From Escherichia phage JEP4, in the sequence record MT740315.1: a DNA stretch of 39,195 nt; one strand, written 5' to 3'. How positions within the stretch are numbered: position 1 is the stretch's first letter; each line of letters starts with the position of its first letter. The notes beneath the pieces were generated by a model that had not been told where the DNA came from, made no database searches, and was given only the letters and a program-made list of their open reading frames with translations. Below are positions 7,102 through 30,580 of the stretch, piece by piece. A program made the translations under genes and the position numbers.

Positions 7102-8520
7102 ATGCCGATTCAGCAACTTCCGCTTATGAAAGGTGTCGGCAAAGACTTTCGAAACGCCGACTATATCGACTATCTGCCAGTGAATATGCTGGCTACACCC
7201 AAAGAAATACTCAACAGCAGCGGATATCTTCGCTCATTCCCGGGCATTGCCAAACGTTCTGATGTGAACGGCGTATCGCGCGGAGTCGAGTACAACATGG
7301 CGCAGAATGCTGTCTATCGTGTGTGTGGCGGCAAGCTCTACAAAGGCGAAAGCGAAGTCGGTGATGTTGCCGGAAGTGGTCGCGTATCAATGGCACACGG
7401 TAGGACATCACAGGCAGTAGGTGTTAATGGTCAACTGGTCGAGTATCGCTATGATGGCACGGTTAAAACCGTCTCAAACTGGCCTGCAGACAGCGGATTT
7501 ACGCAGTATGAGTTAGGTTCAGTCCGCGACATTACACGCTTACGTGGGCGTTATGCGTGGTCAAAAGACGGTACTGATTCATGGTTTATCACTGACCTTG
7601 AAGACGAATCACATCCTGACCGATACAGCGCACAATACCGCGCAGAATCACAGCCTGACGGCATCATCGGCATAGGTACATGGCGAGACTTCATCGTCTG
7701 CTTTGGTTCATCGACAATTGAATATTTCTCCCTGACTGGTGCAACCACCGTTGGTGCCGCTTTGTATGTCGCACAGCCATCGCTGATGGTGCAGAAAGGT
7801 ATTGCCGGGACTTACTGCAAAACGCCATTCGCTGATTCTTATGCGTTCATCAGCAATCCGGCAACAGGTGCGCCGTCTGTATACATCATCGGCTCCGGTC
7901 AGGTGTCACCAATCGCCAGCGCGAGCATTGAGAAAATTCTCCGCTCCTACACTGCTGATGAACTGGCTGATGGTGTGATGGAGTCTCTGCGATTTGATGC
8001 GCATGAGCTGCTGATTATCCACCTTCCGCGCCATGTTCTGGTGTACGACGCATCTTCAAGCGCCAATGGTCCGCAATGGTGTGTACTGAAAACAGGCCTG
8101 TATGACGATGTGTACCGCGCTATCGACTTCATTTACGAAGGCAATCAGATAACGTGCGGCGATAAGCTGGAGTCCGTGACCGGGAAATTGCAATTCGATA
8201 TCAGCAGCCAGTACGACAAGCAACAGGAACACCTGCTGTTTACTCCGTTGTTCAAAGCGGATAACGCCAGAGTTTTCGACCTTGAAGTTGAATCGTCAAC
8301 TGGAGTTGCGCAGTATGCTGACCGCCTTTTTCTCTCTGCAACCACTGACGGCATCAATTACGGGCGTGAGCAGATGATTGAGCAGAATGAACCGTTCGTT
8401 TACGACAAACGCGTTTTGTGGAAGCGGGTCGGACGCATCAGGAAAAATGTCGGCTTCAAATTGCGTGTTATCACTAAGTCACCTGTCACTCTGTCTGGCT
8501 GCCAGATAAGGATTGAGTAA
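7102..8520 (+). CDS. Tail hub protein (P22 gp10-like)
   Basis: 472 aa, same length as P22 gp10; synteny. Confidence 0.65.
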
Positions 8521-9473
8521 TGGCTGATTCGAATCTCAATGAGCCAGTAATCATCCAGGCTACGCGGCTCGATACATCAGTTCTTCCACGCAATATCTTC
8601 TCGCAGTCGTATCTGCTTTACGTTATCGCACAGGGCACTGATGTTGGTAACGTGGCGAATAAGGCCAACGAAGCAGGGAAGGGGGCTTATGATGCACAGG
8701 TGAAGAATGATGAGCAGGATGTCACCCTTGCAGACCATGAATCCAGAATTGAAGCTGCTGAAGCAACTCTCATCAATCATGAACATAGAATTGCAGCAGC
8801 GGAAAGCACTCTTGCAGATCATGAAACAAGGATTACGGCTGCTGAAACAGAGCTGGCTGATCACGAGACGCGAATTGCTGCCAATGAATCTGAGTTAGCA
8901 AACCATGATGCGCGCATAACTCAGAATACAACCGATATCGACGCACTTGATACCAGGCTCACAACGGCAGAAGGAAGTATTTCGACGCTACAAAGCACAG
9001 TTGGTGATCACTCAACAAGAATATCTGCGCTTGAGTATGCCACCACGCGCAAGAAATCAGAGGTTGTTTACTCAGGAGTATCTGTAACCATCCCGACAGC
9101 GCCGACCAACCTTGTTAGTCTGCTGAAAACGCTCACGCCGTCATCCGGCACATTGGCACCATTCTTCGACACCGTTAACAACAAGATGGTTGTGTTCAAC
9201 GAGAACAAAACCCTGTTCTTCAAACTGTCGATCGTCGGGACGTGGCCCAGCGGAACCGCAAACAGGTCAATGCAGCTAACCTTTTCCGGTTCTGTTCCTG
9301 ACACACTGGTAAGCAGTCGTAACTCGGCGACAACAACCGATAACATCCTGTTAGCTACGTTCTTCAGCGTGGATAAAGATGGCTTTCTTGCCTCAAATGG
9401 CAGTACGTTAACCATCCAGTCAAATGGTGCGGCGTTTACTGCCACAACCATCAAGATAATCGCGGAGCAGTGA
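8520..9473 (+). CDS. Tail needle protein (gp26-like) with C-terminal knob extension
   Basis: 317 aa; long heptad coiled coil with repeated ADHETRI motifs; extra C-terminal domain beyond P22 gp26 length; TAATG overlap with upstream gene. Confidence 0.8.
8724..8933 (+). repeat. Five imperfect tandem 42-bp (14-codon) repeats inside tail needle gene
   Basis: Protein repeats [14 protein letters not shown] / [14 protein letters not shown] / [14 protein letters not shown] / [14 protein letters not shown] / [14 protein letters not shown]. Confidence 0.7.
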
Positions 9474-9928
9474 TGATTCAGTTCAAACCAACGCGAAACA
9501 TCGACCTGATCGAAGCAGTAGGAAATCACCCTGACATTATCGCTGGTAGCAACAACGGTGATGGATACGACTACAAGCCTGAATGCCGTTACTTTGAGGT
9601 TAACGTGCACGGTCAGTTTGGCGGCATTGTTTACTATCAGGAGATTCAGCCGCTGACCTTTGATTGCCACGCCATGTACCTGCCAGAGATTCGCGGATTC
9701 AGCAAGGAAATAGGGCTGGCGTTCTGGCGATACATTTTGACCAACACCACCGTTCAGTGCGTCACATCGTTCGCTGCGCGCAAATTCCGCCACGGGCAGA
9801 TGTACTGCGCAATGATTGGCCTTAATCGTGTAGGAACCATCAAGAAATACTTCAAAGGCGTGGATGACGTAACTTTTTACAGCGCCACACGCGAAGAACT
9901 AATCGACTTCCTGAATCACGGGAGATAG
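9470..9928 (+). CDS. gp14-like head/ejection-associated protein
   Basis: 152 aa; assigned only by position between needle and ejection genes. Confidence 0.5.
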
Positions 9929-9930
9929 CC

Positions 9931-10626
9931 ATGTTATATGCATTTAAGCTGGGCAGAAAACTGCGCGGCGAGGAACCTTATTGCCCTGAAAAAGGCGGGA
10001 AAGGTGGCAGTTCTGATAAAAGCGCAAAGTATGCCGCAGAAGCCCAGAAGTATGCCGCAGACCTGCAAAATCAGCAGTTCAACACCATCATGAACAACCT
10101 GAAGCCGTTTACTCCTCTGGCTGATAAGTATGTCGGCAGCCTCGAAAACTTATCGTCTCTGGAAGGGCAAGGTCAGGCACTTAACCAGTATTACAACTCT
10201 CAGCAGTACAAAGATCTTGCTGGTCAGGCTCGCTATCAGAGTCTGGCGGCAGCGGAAGCAACAGGTGGATTGGGTTCCACTGCAACCGGTAATCAGTTAG
10301 CAACAATCGCACCAACGCTTGGTCAGCAATGGCTATCTGGTCAGATGAACAACTACCAGAATCTGGCAAATATTGGTCTTGGCGCTCTTCAGGGGCAGGC
10401 AAACGCCGGGCAAACATATGCCAACAACATGAGCCAGATTTCACAGCAAAGCGCGGCACTGGCGGCGGCAAACGCTAATAGACCTTCCGGCCTTCAATCT
10501 GCAATAGGCGGGGCTGCCTCTGGAGCAATTGCTGGAGCACAGCTTGGCAGCATTGTTCCCGGTATTGGTACTGGTATTGGTGCCGCTGTTGGCGGCGGTC
10601 TTGGTCTTCTTGGTTCACTGTTTTAA
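9931..10626 (+). CDS. Ejection (internal virion) protein, gp7-like
   Basis: 231 aa; Gly/Ala-rich hydrophobic C-terminus; synteny with P22 gp7 (229 aa). Confidence 0.6.
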   Translation: MLYAFKLGRKLRGEEPYCPEKGGKGGSSDKSAKYAAEAQKYAADLQNQQFNTIMNNLKPFTPLADKYVGSLENLSSLEGQGQALNQYYNSQQYKDLAGQARYQSLAAAEATGGLGSTATGNQLATIAPTLGQQWLSGQMNNYQNLANIGLGALQGQANAGQTYANNMSQISQQSAALAAANANRPSGLQSAIGGAASGAIAGAQLGSIVPGIGTGIGAAVGGGLGLLGSLF

Positions 10627-14132: not shown

Positions 14133-14774
14133 TCAAAGCAACGGGATTTCAAGGTAAACTGCGGTTGCCAAAATACTAACATCTTCATTTCTAACAAGAA
14201 TATTAGGATACATTGGGTTTAGGGATACTAGGTTTGTCTCTATTTCACCAATGTAAACCTGTTTGAAGCTCAATATTTGCTCTTTATCCAATGATGCTAT
14301 TACATAATCTTTGCTTTTAGCTTTTACTAGAGGGCTGAACGTGACAACCGATCCTCTGGGAAAGCTAATACCTGAACTTGTAGTCATAGCTTCACCTTCA
14401 ATAGTCAATGCAAATGCAGAGTCACCAACATTGTATATTGCAGGATGAAATCTAGACGATGAATGTTCACCTGTGTTTAGGTAATGCATAACTTCATCTA
14501 GTTTGAGAATTGGTATTTGCTTTACCAGAACGTCAGGCATGACGTTTTTTGTTCCCGGACCCTGACCTTCACCTAGAGCTAACCACTCAGCCGTAGTACC
14601 TAATGCGTTGGCTAATGCCTGCAATACCCGAAGCCGTGGTTTAGCCTCACCACCCTCGTATGCAGCTATTTGACGTTGAACAACACCAGCTAATTTTGAC
14701 AACTGCGCCTGCGTCATACCCCTGGACTGTCTTGCCAGAGATACTCTTGATGGGAATTGATCGTCAAAATTCAT
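14133..14774 (-). CDS. CI/LexA-like repressor: HTH_XRE N-domain plus degenerate S24 peptidase-like C-domain
   Basis: N-terminal HTH (GMTQAQLSKLAGVVQRQIAAYEGG); C-domain aligns to the c2 S24 domain in this window but has GEAM where c2 has GDSM, with Lys retained (SFKQ vs TFKK). Confidence 0.8.
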   Translation of the reverse strand: MNFDDQFPSRVSLARQSRGMTQAQLSKLAGVVQRQIAAYEGGEAKPRLRVLQALANALGTTAEWLALGEGQGPGTKNVMPDVLVKQIPILKLDEVMHYLNTGEHSSSRFHPAIYNVGDSAFALTIEGEAMTTSSGISFPRGSVVTFSPLVKAKSKDYVIASLDKEQILSFKQVYIGEIETNLVSLNPMYPNILVRNEDVSILATAVYLEIPLL

Positions 14775-14873: not shown

Positions 14874-15047
14874 ATGACTGAAAAGATATCTTCCATCAAG
14901 CCGCGTCAGGTTCGTTTTACAGAAAAGGTTGATTCACATATCCGCGAATCAGCAAAAAGATGCCATAGGTCAATTCAGGCAGAGATAGCTTATCGAATGG
15001 AGTTATTAATGAAACTTGAGGCAAAGGGCGATGTTGTCATCCAATAA
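14874..15047 (+). CDS. Arc-like ribbon-helix-helix repressor (57 aa; below ORF-track cutoff)
   Basis: Read directly: MTEKISSIKPRQVRFTEKVDSHIRESAKRCHRSIQAEIAYRMELLMKLEAKGDVVIQ; AGGAG SD 6 nt upstream of ATG; beta-strand plus two helices pattern of Arc/Mnt RHH family; first gene of operon. Confidence 0.6.
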   Translation: MTEKISSIKPRQVRFTEKVDSHIRESAKRCHRSIQAEIAYRMELLMKLEAKGDVVIQ

Positions 15048-15120
15048 AAATAGTGAAGCCCGGCAGTGCGCGAACACAAACCGGGCCTCTATGTCAGTAA
15101 CCGTACTCAAGGAAACTAAC

Positions 15121-15759
15121 ATGAATATTGTAGCAAAATCAGATTATAACTTCCAAGGATTCACTTTTAACCCTGTAACAGAGGGCGGGTCTATCTGGTT
15201 TACCTCCACCGAACTAGCTAAGGCTCTCGGCTATAAAAAAACTGATGCCATCAGCCAAATTTATGCCCGTAATGCTGACGAATTTTCCGACTCAATGTCA
15301 TTGACCCTCAATATGAAGGTCAACGGAATAAACAATAGCTTACGTAACAAATCGGTCAGAGTTTACTCACTCCGAGGCGCTCACTTGGTGGCGATGTTTG
15401 CTTCTACGCCCAAGGCCAAAGAGTTCCGCCGCTGGGTGCTGGATATTTTGGATCGGCAGGCAGAATGCTCACCGATTGCAAAACAGTTCACTGACGAAGA
15501 GCTGGTTAATCTCTGCTACTTACAATTGTGGATGGAGAAGAGTCAACAAATGTGCAAACACATCTACCCAGGAATGAAGCAAATTGGTTCTGAGCTTTCA
15601 GGAAGGATTTACGATATTGCATATGAGACTCGCTACATGTCAGAAGAAACCAAGAAATCACTTCTTCGTGAAATGAAGAATCTTGATACCAACAATTTTG
15701 TCGTAAAGAACGCTCAGCCAATGCTGGCAAAACTTCGCGGCGAGGAATGGATTCATTGA
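15121..15759 (+). CDS. Antirepressor-family protein with Bro-N domain
   Basis: Begins MNIVAKSDYNFQGFTFNPVTEGGSIWFTSTELAKALGY (Bro-N-type); AAGGA SD; ORF-track start 15016 is an upstream extension overlapping the Arc-like gene. Confidence 0.75.
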   Translation: MNIVAKSDYNFQGFTFNPVTEGGSIWFTSTELAKALGYKKTDAISQIYARNADEFSDSMSLTLNMKVNGINNSLRNKSVRVYSLRGAHLVAMFASTPKAKEFRRWVLDILDRQAECSPIAKQFTDEELVNLCYLQLWMEKSQQMCKHIYPGMKQIGSELSGRIYDIAYETRYMSEETKKSLLREMKNLDTNNFVVKNAQPMLAKLRGEEWIH

Positions 15760-17065: not shown

Positions 17066-17481
17066 CAATGCCTCACCAAATGGGTGGAATGGCATCGTAA
17101 AACCTACTGTACAAATCAACAATCGTACCGTTTCGGTATGTAACAAATGCTCACCGTAGCCATGCTGCGGCGATTCCTTGTATCTGGAGCAAATTAAATG
17201 ACAGATATTATAAATAGGAATTGTTATTTAATAATGTTTGAAAATAAAAATCATGGACGATAGGAATAAAGGTATTACTTGTTTTTATTTTTGTAAGTGA
17301 CGCATTAAGCGCATAAATAATATGCCTGTTGATCAAGATTCTTGAGTATTGTAAAATAATCGTTTTGTTCATGTTGCATGGTTTTTAAATGAATAGAAGG
17401 TTATTTTTCAAAACAATTGCATCTTTGTCTGCAGTCATTCCGTTTTCTTCAATATCTAAATCTTCAAACAGGATGACTAAT

Positions 17482-19539
17482 ATGCCTGATATAACCCCAA
17501 ATGTTGTAATTGGGATGCCATCGCAACTCTTCACAATGGCTAGCTCTTTTAAAACCGTAGCAAATGGAAAAATTTATATCGGTAAGATTGACACAGATCC
17601 GGTAAATCCAGAAAACCAGATTCCAGTATATCTGGAACGAGAAGATGGTACTTATGTTCAGGTGCCACAGCCAATCGTTATCAATGCTGCTGGATACCCG
17701 GTATACAACGGACAGATTTCCAAATTCGTTACCGTGCAAGGCCATTCTATGGCTGTTTACGATGCATATGGTACGCAGCAGTTCTATTTTCCGAATGTGC
17801 TGAAATACGACCCGGATCAGTTAAGACAAGAGTTAGCAACAGAGGGTAATGAAATACTTGTTGACGACTCCCGTATTGCAGTTAAAAGTGTTCATGTAAA
17901 TTCAAAACTTAGAACACAGCACAATAAAAACGCAGAAATAATCACGCCAAATGATTTTATATCAAATTATGACATGATATCTGCAGCTATTAACTCTGGA
18001 GAGAGTGCCGCAGTATTTAATTCCAGGTATGCATTCACAATAACAGTTGGGGAATATGGTAATTTTAAATCTATTAGTGATGCTCTAAACTCAGCTGTTG
18101 CACTGCGTCCACTATGGAAAAATGGCATTGATTTTTGCATAATTAAAATTCTTTCCGGTTTTGTGCTCAATGAGCAAATAGAAATTTCAGCAGGATGTGA
18201 CTTATCATGGATTAAAATAATATCAGAAGACTCAGTGGTTTTCTCTGATACCAGTTTGTTTACTAAAACTGTTAGGACGTATTACGAATACAAATATTTA
18301 TTTTACATTTGCGATGCAGCAAAAAGTCCTGTATTTGCTATTCAGATTGAAGAAAATAGAGATGATAGCGATGTTTGTGCATTTATTGTAACTCAAAAAG
18401 CTGAACTTAATTTCTATCCGTATTCAGGTGCTCGAAAGTTCTACGTTGGAATTCATGGTAGTTTTGGTGCAAAAATTAGTGCATATCATACCGGATGTGC
18501 TCCTGATGAGGAAAGTGTTGCTGCATATATGCCAGAAGGGTATTACGTATGTGATTTTTCTTATAGCAGATACTCTTCCCTGCAACTGGTAAATAATGTC
18601 AAGGCATCAATGCCTGTAAGCAAGTTTGAACGGTGCACAGAGAGTACGGTTGCGTCAGTTAATTGTATTTATAATGTTAAAGCAGATTTTCAGGGGTCAA
18701 GTGCAAGCTATTGTTATATAGGATGGAATGTAAGAGATGGTTCAAATGTTAATATACGCGACCATAAAACTATACATTGCTCATATCGTGGATTAACCTG
18801 CATTCATACAGCATATGTTGATGCAAGACGACATGACGTTGAAGAAAGTGATGCAGAAACAAGTGGTAAAGTCCTTGAACCAAATATTGAAAAAGGTTTT
18901 TATGGATGTGCACTTGGTGTGCGTATTGATGGTGCGGGTTGTGTTGATGTTGCTGGTAATGATATGCGCAATTGTGGAACAGCCGTTAATGCAGACACTG
19001 GTGCTGTTATTTCAGGAAAAGCTGTAGATATCTCAGGGGCTGAGTTGGGATTTGATTGCCATGCAGGAGCATCTGTTAATTTTCCAAGGCTATGGGGTAC
19101 AGATATAAAAAAATTAATGCACCTCCAAGATGGTGTAAGGTTTAACTCTAATATTTGTCATGTATTTGGTGCAAATCCCACAAAAGATATTAGATGGATT
19201 GATGTAGAGAGATCTGAAGCTTCTTTTATGAATGCAACGCTGGATGCAGATTCAGGATTTATTGCTGACTGTGGTAGTAGGATAACCATTGAAGGAAGTA
19301 AAGTTAAAAACCAAACAATAAGAAGTTTTTTTGGATCACATGTGGCTATAAATAATACTGTTGCTGACAGAACTTATTCAGATATAGCCGATGTTCCGCA
19401 GTTGACTATTAGTGGAGGATCTTTTATTTCTGCTACAGGATATTCTAATTCTGACTCCAGCCCTCTTAGGTTGAGCACAACACGAAATACACTTGGAGTT
19501 GGAGGAGCCATATTTTCAACCAATGGGGAAGTTTCATGA
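17482..19539 (+). CDS. Tailspike protein: P22-family head-binding N-domain plus divergent receptor-binding domain
   Basis: N-terminus MPDITPNVVIGMPSQLFTMASSFKTVANGKIYIGKIDTDPVNPENQIPVY matches the P22 gp9 head-binding domain pattern; remainder is AT-rich and unrelated to my recollection of P22 gp9; ORF-track start 17389 is an extension. Confidence 0.85.
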   Translation: MPDITPNVVIGMPSQLFTMASSFKTVANGKIYIGKIDTDPVNPENQIPVYLEREDGTYVQVPQPIVINAAGYPVYNGQISKFVTVQGHSMAVYDAYGTQQFYFPNVLKYDPDQLRQELATEGNEILVDDSRIAVKSVHVNSKLRTQHNKNAEIITPNDFISNYDMISAAINSGESAAVFNSRYAFTITVGEYGNFKSISDALNSAVALRPLWKNGIDFCIIKILSGFVLNEQIEISAGCDLSWIKIISEDSVVFSDTSLFTKTVRTYYEYKYLFYICDAAKSPVFAIQIEENRDDSDVCAFIVTQKAELNFYPYSGARKFYVGIHGSFGAKISAYHTGCAPDEESVAAYMPEGYYVCDFSYSRYSSLQLVNNVKASMPVSKFERCTESTVASVNCIYNVKADFQGSSASYCYIGWNVRDGSNVNIRDHKTIHCSYRGLTCIHTAYVDARRHDVEESDAETSGKVLEPNIEKGFYGCALGVRIDGAGCVDVAGNDMRNCGTAVNADTGAVISGKAVDISGAELGFDCHAGASVNFPRLWGTDIKKLMHLQDGVRFNSNICHVFGANPTKDIRWIDVERSEASFMNATLDADSGFIADCGSRITIEGSKVKNQTIRSFFGSHVAINNTVADRTYSDIADVPQLTISGGSFISATGYSNSDSSPLRLSTTRNTLGVGGAIFSTNGEVS

Positions 19540-28013: not shown

Positions 28014-28664
28014 TTATGGAAGGTTTGCTAGTTTTGCATCGACAACTACGCCGATGATTTTGCAGTTTCCGTTGATCTCGATCATCGGATATTGTGGGTT
28101 AAGTGGTTTTAGAAACTTCCTGCCTGCATCAATAACTAACTTCTTGAAAGTTGCCTCGTTTTCTCCTTCTAGCTTTGCAACTACCAGTTTCCCGTTACGC
28201 GGCTCTACTTCAGGATCGACGAGTATTATCATTCCTTCAGGGATACTGAGACCGGCCGGAGCCGTCATTGAGTCTCCCTTCACGTCCAACCAAAACGAAT
28301 CTTCTGAACAGTCTACGGTTGTATCGTACCAGTTATCTATTGCACGCTTATGATATGGTTCTACAGCTTCCATCCAGCATCCTGCGCTCACCCAGCTAAT
28401 CAGAGGGTATGACCCTCTTGGATCATGCCTACTGTGATAGGCAATGTTTGAAAGACTTTCCTCTCCTTTCATCAGATAGTCAGGGGAACACTTCAACGCA
28501 TTAGCCAGGGCGAGAAGATTCTCTCCATTTGGCTCTGTCTCAGAGCGTTCCCACTGAGATATGGCAACATTAGACACGCCGACCATCTTTCCAAGTGCGG
28601 CCTGCCTGATCTTGAGTTCTTTTCTCCGAGCGCGAATGCGCTCTCCCATCAATTGAGTTTTCAT
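28014..28664 (-). CDS. c2: Prophage repressor, P22 C2-type (HTH plus S24 peptidase)
   Basis: MKTQLMGERIRARRKELKIRQAALGKMVGVSNVAISQWERSETEPNGENLLAL matches P22 c2 as recalled; intact catalytic GDSM and FKK; Ala-Gly in linker. Confidence 0.95.
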   Translation of the reverse strand: MKTQLMGERIRARRKELKIRQAALGKMVGVSNVAISQWERSETEPNGENLLALANALKCSPDYLMKGEESLSNIAYHSRHDPRGSYPLISWVSAGCWMEAVEPYHKRAIDNWYDTTVDCSEDSFWLDVKGDSMTAPAGLSIPEGMIILVDPEVEPRNGKLVVAKLEGENEATFKKLVIDAGRKFLKPLNPQYPMIEINGNCKIIGVVVDAKLANLP

Positions 28665-29632: not shown

Positions 29633-30580
29633 ATGAGCAATACAGCAAAAATCTACGATTTCAGCGCCGCACACGAGCGCAGGAGCAACAGGATGGAGAA
29701 CCAGAAAACTGGTTACATTCCGTTGTACCGGAGCATTCTGAAACAGTCATGGGCGAAAGATGTTTATCTTCGCACCCTGTGGGAAAACCTTCTCCTGAAT
29801 GCCGCCAGAAAGCCATACAAAGCGAATTTCAAAGGTCATGAATGGCATCTGCAACCCGGTCAACTGGTTGTGACAGCAGCTGATTTAGGTCTTCAGTTAT
29901 GCGACAGGCATGGCAAGCCAGCAAGCCGCGATCAGGTTGAGCGGATGCTTCAGGTTTTTGTGAAAGAGGGGATGATCTCCATTGATGGAGAGAAGCAAAA
30001 AGGTCGTGTGATCACCATCACAAATTACCATGAATATGCTCAAAAAATGGACAATTCACCCGCACATGAATCCGCACAAACAACCGCACATGATGCCGCA
30101 CATGATGAAGCCAGTAATGGCGCGGCTTTCAGCGTACATGCCACACATGAAAGCGCACATGAAGCCGCACAAACAACCGCACATCATGAACAAGAAGGTA
30201 TTAACAAGAATATAAATAATACCCCCCTACCCCCCAATGGGGGAGGCGATGGGCAGGTTAAACCTGAACGTCGAAAGGCAGAACGCATCGACTACGAATC
30301 CTTCCTGAACGCCTACAACACCGAAGTCGGTGACAGACTTCCACATGCTGTTGCGGTCAACGAGAAACGCAAACGCCGCCTGAAGAAAATCATCCCGCAA
30401 CTGAAAACGCCAAACGTGGACGGTTTCAGAGCGTATGTCAGGGCGTTTGTGCATCAGGCCAAGCCGTTTTACTTCGGAGACAACGACACGGGCTGGACGG
30501 CAGATTTTGATTACCTGCTGAGGGAAGACTCGTTAACGGGAGTTCGGGAAGGGAAGTTTGCAGACAGGGGGATTGCATGA
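29633..30580 (+). CDS. Replication initiator, lambda O-like (P22 gene 18 position)
   Basis: 315 aa; gene contains the iteron array and AT-rich tract; repetitive AH-rich linker; followed by helicase. Confidence 0.8.
30058..30225. repeat. Origin of replication: iteron array (CCGCACATGATG-type repeats) plus AT-rich tract inside the initiator gene
   Basis: Tandem CCGCACATGATG x2; 24-mer CCGCACAAACAACCGCACAT(G/C)ATG present twice about 94 bp apart; followed by AACAAGAAGGTATTAACAAGAATATAAATAATA. Confidence 0.65.

Follow-up and report, generated by a model that had tools for sequence, protein, structure and literature searches.

The window, by which we mean the whole 39,195-nt stretch of DNA that was analysed, is a complete P22-like genome that runs from the small terminase gene to lysis and Rha-type genes. 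Its tail-needle gene, of the P22 gp26 family and the HS1/Sf6 knob subtype, is a 954-nt ORF on the plus strand (8520-9473) encoding 317 amino acids and a stop. It lies downstream of gp10 and is followed by the ejection-protein genes gp14/gp7/gp20/gp16. Upstream, the stop of the gp10 tail-hub gene (7102-8520, plus strand; PF11134, E 1e-301) overlaps the needle start in the sequence TAATG; downstream, the start of a gp14-like gene (DUF2824; 9470-9928, plus strand; PF11039, E 1e-52) overlaps the needle stop, and PF25688 and PF16928 matches complete the gp14/gp7/gp20 set. Within the gp7 ejection-protein gene, a 21-bp tandem duplication is found at 10020-10061 (Tandem Repeats Finder score 68; stretch SAKYAAEAQKYAAD).

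Elsewhere in the window there are two CI/LexA-like repressors (HTH_3 plus Peptidase_S24), both on the minus strand, at 14133-14774 and 28014-28664. One occupies the usual immunity region, and the other lies between gp16 and the tailspike and adjoins an Ant-like gene (15016-15759; Bro-N plus P22_AR_C), and the HS1 prophage has similarly annotated genes at the corresponding positions. Two runs of a 12-bp repeat (CCGCACATGAAA-like) at 30060-30184, inside an O-like replication gene (29633-30580, PF04492), are probably origin iterons. The tailspike ORF (17389-19539) has a 5' extension and a receptor-binding part with no Pfam match; with the head-binding domain (PF09008) beginning at ORF residue 32, translation probably initiates at Met29 or Met32.

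The needle protein has PDB matches to 4k6b, 3rwn, 2poh and 5bu5. The N-terminal domain (residues 1-68; 8520-8723, plus strand) is delimited by alignment to the HK620 needle 5bu5, which covers residues 1-79 (E 1.4e-40), and to the 62-residue tail-needle gp26 chain 8eap_B, which covers residues 3-64. In homologues, this domain plugs the channel of the gp10 tail hub (PMC3741392). The P22 gp26 crystal chains 2poh and 3c9i align further into the protein, over residues 1-157 (E about 1e-43; 8.8e-43 for 2poh). The C-terminal part matches Pfam PF16532, the Sf6-type tail needle knob, with an E value of 1.1e-107. This TNF-like knob (residues 175-317; 9042-9470, plus strand) is identical in 152 of 153 residues to the HS1 knob crystal construct 4k6b and is near-identical to the Sf6 knob (3rwn). 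The glutamate-binding residues E181, K235, S283 and D285 and the triad S266-R267-N268, as listed for the knob in the literature (PMC3741392), are all present; in the orthologue alignment E181, K235, S283, D285, S266 and R267 are invariant, and N268 is found in at least 90% of the sequences. Judged by these matches, the gene is assigned as encoding the HS1-type tail needle of a P22-like short-tailed phage. Two further ORFs inside the repeat region (8577-8864, minus strand, and 8707-8898, plus strand) were dismissed, as they have no homology of their own and lie within the strongly supported needle gene. Pfam coiled-coil matches (DUF7310, MscS_porin, ATG16, crescentin) were likewise set aside: they fall below gathering scores and reflect coiled-coil composition only.

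Bases 8724-8933 correspond to residues 69-138 of the needle and consist of five 42-bp units, all on the plus strand, that encode the consensus T/E-L-A-D/N-H-E-x-R-I-x-A-A-E-x. A first-pass annotation of this DNA had described five consecutive 14-residue repeats here, and the units are located exactly at those places and in frame with the ORF. Unit 1 (8724-8765) is most similar to unit 3 (8808-8849), which serves as the reference copy for the repeat family, including the terminal copy described below. Unit 2 (8766-8807) has 9 of its 14 residues in common with each of units 1, 3 and 4. Unit 4 (8850-8891) carries an asparagine at one of the d positions and differs synonymously from units 1-3. In unit 5 (8892-8933) the first heptad is conserved and the second has diverged to an Asn-at-d layer, which aligns to DDHESRITANTKA of P22 gp26. 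Overall, any two of units 1-4 agree at 9-11 of 14 positions, and unit 5 agrees with them at 5-7.

The array continues past 8933. A degenerate sixth unit (8934-8975, plus strand), in which Leu-Asp replaces Asp-His (DH), retains 48-55% DNA identity to units 1-3 and contains an R-h-x-x-h-E motif at residue 146. It is followed by the last three heptads of the shaft (residues 153-174; 8976-9041, plus strand), which contain a terminal DH copy (GDHSTRI) at 8992-9022. This copy matches the 5' part of unit 3 at 74% identity and is found 147 nt, or 3.5 units, after unit 4, so that it lies half a unit out of register.

Each 14-residue unit comprises two heptads, with L/I at a, H/A at d, E at e and R/T at g. 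One heptad of the unit provides a His(d)-Glu(e)-x-Arg(g) layer, the other the pattern Ile(a)-x-x-Ala(d)-Glu(e). The heptads remain in phase from L70 to L171 with no break, giving 15 heptads, or 16 when N63-T69 is counted; the earlier description of the units as double heptads is correct. The a positions of residues 70-171, LILILILILIILIVI (L-I-L-I-L-I-L-I-L-I-I-L-I-V-I), are hydrophobic throughout, and the d positions read HAHAHAHNHNLALHL (H-A-H-A-H-A-H-N-H-N-L-A-L-H-L). Position e is almost always glutamate, and position g alternates between arginine and either threonine or glutamate. An AlphaFold2 model, built as a monomer on 16 orthologues (72-98% identical; Escherichia, Klebsiella and Serratia), shows one helix over residues 43-175, with pLDDT values of 91-98 over residues 61-160, followed by the beta-rich knob. 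Within every unit, the residues H, E, R, I, A and E do not vary among the 16 orthologues. Histidines occupy d positions at residues 73, 87, 101, 115, 129 and 164; the first five of these are invariant in the orthologues, and after each comes Glu at e, replaced by Asp in the window's unit 5, and then Arg at g.

The trimerisation motif R-h-x-x-h-E, with Arg at g, hydrophobic residues at a and d and Glu at e, was reportedly described by Kammerer et al. in 2005. Five stretches of the needle fit this description and are putative trimerisation motifs: RIEAAE at residue 76, RIAAAE at 90, RITAAE at 104, RLTTAE at 146 and RISALE at 167. In units 4 and 5 the motif is absent, Asn occupying the d position, and the ITQNTTD of unit 5 aligns with ITANTKA of P22. 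A literature search on 'trimerization octad' in needles found nothing. By analogy with the solved trimeric homologues, and from the literature, the assembled needle would be a parallel homotrimer.

The periodicity exceeds chance in both DNA and protein. Over the 210 nt of the array, identity at a lag of 42 nt is 0.607, compared with a mean of 0.378 and a maximum of 0.489 in shuffled sequences; at the protein level, identity at a lag of 14 residues is 0.625 and the shuffle maximum is 0.378. None of 20,000 codon shuffles reached the observed DNA or protein value, the DNA maximum being taken over in-frame lags of 21-84. The interval 8724-8933 is also the best lag-42 stretch of 210 nt in the 39 kb window (background 0.27 +/- 0.04). 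Pairwise DNA identity among the units ranges from 36 to 79%, with the highest value for units 1 and 3. Tandem Repeats Finder, the check suggested in the first-pass annotation, does find a repeat of period 42 (8723-8825; 70% matches, score 102), but extends it over only 2.5 copies, so that the repeat is weak at the DNA level.

Of 11 synonymous-capable codons, units 1 and 3 have 8 in common where 4.0 are expected (P about 0.01, uncorrected over 15 pairs). In the other unit pairs there is no excess of synonymous-codon sharing, and the shared amino acids account for all of their DNA similarity; a duplication origin is therefore directly supported only for units 1 and 3. In unit 4, 7 of the 9-10 codons for the same residue differ synonymously from those of units 1-3, indicating an old copy maintained by protein-level selection. 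No exact in-register match between units is longer than 9 nt, and the repeat is accordingly not hypermutable. Of two features expected in a fast-changing tandem DNA repeat, near-identity of adjacent units is absent from this array, where synonymous sites have reached saturation in all pairs but that of units 1 and 3, and a copy number that differs among close relatives is present, though the variants are a minority.

That the number of repeats may vary among relatives had been proposed from the sequence of this gene alone, and it does. Among the 120 best cluster representatives, homologues of 254, 268, 282, 289, 296, 303, 310, 317, 331, 338 and 345 amino acids are found, a ladder with steps of 7 residues. 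Heptad phase is kept in 100 of the 104 sequences in which the shaft can be delimited, and the four exceptions are single sequences. Alleles that are at least 89% identical to the needle of the window contain from 3 to 7 DH units in the 14-residue register. The representatives record at least 12 distinct in-phase deletions or duplications, with junctions inside the repeats at microhomologies of 2-8 nt.

Junctions were read from the DNA of five variants. The 345-residue allele has an exact 84-bp tandem duplication of units 1 and 2, with the junction in the 8-nt CTTGCAGA common to units 1 and 3; the third unit of this allele is chimeric, beginning as unit 3 and continuing as unit 1, with the change within CTTGCAGA. 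The 331-residue allele has a separate 84-bp duplication, recognised by a different diagnostic junction base and by a private substitution present in both copies, and additionally has units 4 and 5 fused. A 303-residue allele results from a 42-bp deletion that fuses units 4 and 5, other alleles of this length fusing units 1 and 2 or units 2 and 3. Two routes also lead to 289 residues, either the absence of units 1-2 or a fusion of units 1 and 3. In the 268-residue allele, 147 bp are deleted at the 7-nt TGATCAC that occurs in both unit 4 and the terminal DH copy. The Sf6-like lineage behaves likewise: it carries a distinct 28-residue unit in one, two or three copies, and deletions reduce the needle to as few as 254 residues. 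The first-pass annotation had attributed such variation to slippage or recombination. In-phase gains and losses with microhomology junctions agree with this proposal, the mechanism itself being read from the junction sequences only.

Some variants are represented by one sequence each, from a short-read assembly, and may be erroneous. Others occur in complete genomes or megabase contigs, including those of E. coli 536 (289 residues) and CFSAN061770 (303 residues), so the variants are not all assembly artefacts. Three apparent length variants were rejected as changes of the repeat: the extra 7 residues of a 324-residue relative are an N-terminal start-site extension, and relatives of 318 and 316 residues differ outside the shaft. 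A needle of 309 residues (P0056; E. coli, contig of 5.03 Mb) has a 27-residue duplication at residues 110-140 approximately. This is one residue short of four heptads and puts the shaft out of heptad phase; such a needle may not function properly, or a local discontinuity may be tolerable. Two other alleles (P0006 and P0039) have an Sf6-type first unit (ILADHEQRISAAEA) followed by HS1-type units and, from their sequences, look like recombinants of the Sf6 and HS1 shaft lineages with a crossover inside the repeats.

We regard it as highly probable that, in an HS1-type needle, 8724-8933 encodes the two-thirds of the alpha-helical shaft nearest the N terminus, and that rare misaligned exchange among its in-phase units has produced the ladder of lengths. 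Each unit would supply one hydrophobic a/d layer pair and one His-Glu-x-Arg polar layer, and units 1-3 would each supply in addition one trimerisation-type R-h-x-x-h-E motif. Three chains would wind into a parallel trimeric coiled coil, predicted to be unbroken from about residue 63 to 174, and the resulting rod would join the N-terminal plug, which is expected to seal the gp10 channel and hold the packaged DNA, to the knob at the C-terminal tip. By standard coiled-coil geometry (about 1.5 Å per residue) each unit would add about 21 Å. Because the units are alike and all in heptad phase, misaligned exchange at the short inter-unit matches, whether by slippage or by unequal exchange, would delete or duplicate whole units; the coiled coil would stay intact after each gain or loss, leaving a series of needles of different lengths.

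Another view of the same structure is that the periodicity is a structural signature and nothing else: selection for the coiled coil keeps the units alike, the variants are rare accidents that are neutral or mildly harmful, and the repeat has no role in generating variation. It agrees with the preferred explanation on structure and differs from it only on significance. The saturation of synonymous sites between most unit pairs and the invariance of the core motif residues across genera are what it would lead one to expect, and the rarity of the variants also speaks for it. The five-unit, 317-residue architecture is kept in Klebsiella and Serratia relatives that are only 72-80% identical. At 56 IMG/VR loci the needles are almost all of 233, 282 or 317 residues, the only lengths that are common there. 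When the 872 E. coli records with a match were sampled evenly, 11 of the 12 matches that cover at least 80% of the query are full-length (952-954 nt), and one is a 912-nt, 303-residue allele. The five-unit form is thus old, conserved across genera and dominant, and the length variants are a minority; turnover is slow and may have no functional meaning. Against a purely structural signature stand the in-phase rearrangements, at least 12 among 120 cluster representatives with junctions at inter-unit microhomology, and the 303-residue class, which is common (31 clusters) and found in complete genomes, so that some variants persist. We consider this view a plausible one, to be taken seriously, though we do not favour it. 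In either case, the array is a slowly changing structural repeat and not a hypermutable tract.

It is also conceivable that selection fits needle length to how far the tailspikes reach or to how thick the host surface layer is, with gain and loss of repeats as the tuning mechanism. The needle extends further out than the tailspikes and probably makes the first contact with the outer membrane (PMC3741392), and the coupling between needle and tailspike length was examined for this reason. Through the tailspike head-binding domain, 80 IMG/VR loci (L006-L085) were gathered, and 38 distinct knob-type loci were compared. The median tailspike length is 788 residues with 317-residue needles (n=7) and 676 residues with 282-residue needles (n=30), a weak positive trend that is not significant among the 38 knob-type loci (Mann-Whitney P 0.14; Spearman 0.28, P 0.09), which are moreover not independent. 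The tailspike ranges overlap fully between needle lengths: tailspikes of 981 residues accompany needles of 233, 282 and 317 residues, and one of 632 residues accompanies a 317-residue needle. Furthermore, P22 hybrids that carry the Sf6 shaft and knob, or the HS1 knob, infect Salmonella normally (PMC3741392). The occurrence of tailspikes of equal length with different needles suggests that needle and tailspike assort freely in P22-like phages. An adaptive matching of needle length is unlikely.

We think it very improbable that the histidine layers at every second d position form a pH- or ion-sensitive latch that aids needle release or unfolding, with a threshold set by the number of units: the conserved His(d), Glu/Asp(e) and Arg(g) pattern and the ions held in polar core layers of P22 gp26 (PMC13580157) would fit such a role, but a literature search found no report of it for histidines in needles, and a purely structural role explains the invariance equally well. 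The extended form of this idea, in which the His(d)-Glu(e)-x-Arg(g) layer is a pH- or ion-responsive latch and gain or loss of units tunes stability, reach or the DNA-release threshold to each host, is a speculation that we would hardly expect to hold. If it were true, the shaft would act as a sensor open to evolutionary change and not simply as an inert spacer.

The observation of five repeats in this gene, and its interpretation, are both correct and in essence already published, as regards both the HS1 needle type and the variation in length. There is little that is new in the needle itself, the HS1 type having already been purified, partly crystallised and described with 16 heptads. The modest addition made here is a catalogue of natural needle alleles that forms a heptad-quantised ladder from 254 to 345 residues and shows that this ladder was made by at least 12 separate rearrangements at short inter-repeat matches. 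Needle stability is reportedly linked with coiled-coil length, to go by the title of a study by Bhardwaj et al. (J Mol Biol, 2009), and the natural allele series could be used to test needle length against virion stability or DNA delivery. The catalogue may also help users of gp26-type needles as engineered protein fibres.

The closest known relative is the HS1 needle (EcHS_A0316; 4K6B), encoded by a prophage in E. coli HS (NC_009800, 320115-321068, 954 nt). Like the needle of the window it has 317 residues, five DH units, a degenerate sixth unit and a terminal DH copy; the two genes are 95.5% identical in nucleotide sequence and the proteins in 309 of 317 residues, with the same numbering of the glutamate- and phosphate-binding residues and the same gene neighbours. 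Of the eight substitutions that separate the proteins, three are in the repeat region (D100E, A107D and T138A) and one is in the knob (S292T). The remainder of the genome is mosaic with respect to the HS1 prophage, gp10 for example being only 93.7% identical. The 43 nucleotide differences between the two needle genes are unevenly placed, with 3 in the 210-nt repeat (35320-35529 of L086) and 19 in the 204-nt N-terminal part, a distribution in the sequences that suggests mosaic exchange within the gene. The same full-length needle type is found in the isolated phages vB_EcoP-720R6 and Gally.

P22-like needles are 220-320 Å long and have 11-16 heptads; the helical region of the HS1 needle is predicted to measure 210 Å, with 16 heptads compared with 11 in Sf6 and P22, and the HS1 knob is 99% identical to that of Sf6 (PMC3741392). 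Sf6 gp9 (282 residues; 3RWN) has a homologous N-terminal plug, an almost identical knob, 14-residue units of the DH type and a terminal DH copy. Its shaft is 35 residues shorter and is made up of three DH units, a single LD unit and the terminal copy, and its lineage differs from the HS1 type in having the 28-residue repeat mentioned above. P22 gp26 (233 residues; 2POH, 3C9I) is alike in its N-terminal domain and the start of its coiled coil, and shares both the DH units and the Asn-at-d layer of unit 5. However, P22 has two DH units where the needle of the window has five, and at its tip a triple beta-helix and an inverted coiled coil take the place of the knob.

More distant parallels are offered by the adenovirus fibre shaft, the streptococcal M protein and the stalks of trimeric autotransporters, in which the number of repeats sets the length of the rod and relatives differ by whole repeats. 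Several of these have near-identical DNA repeats with quick turnover. The needle is unrelated to them in sequence and differs from them in that its units are old and have diverged to 48-79% DNA identity, and change in their number is rare.
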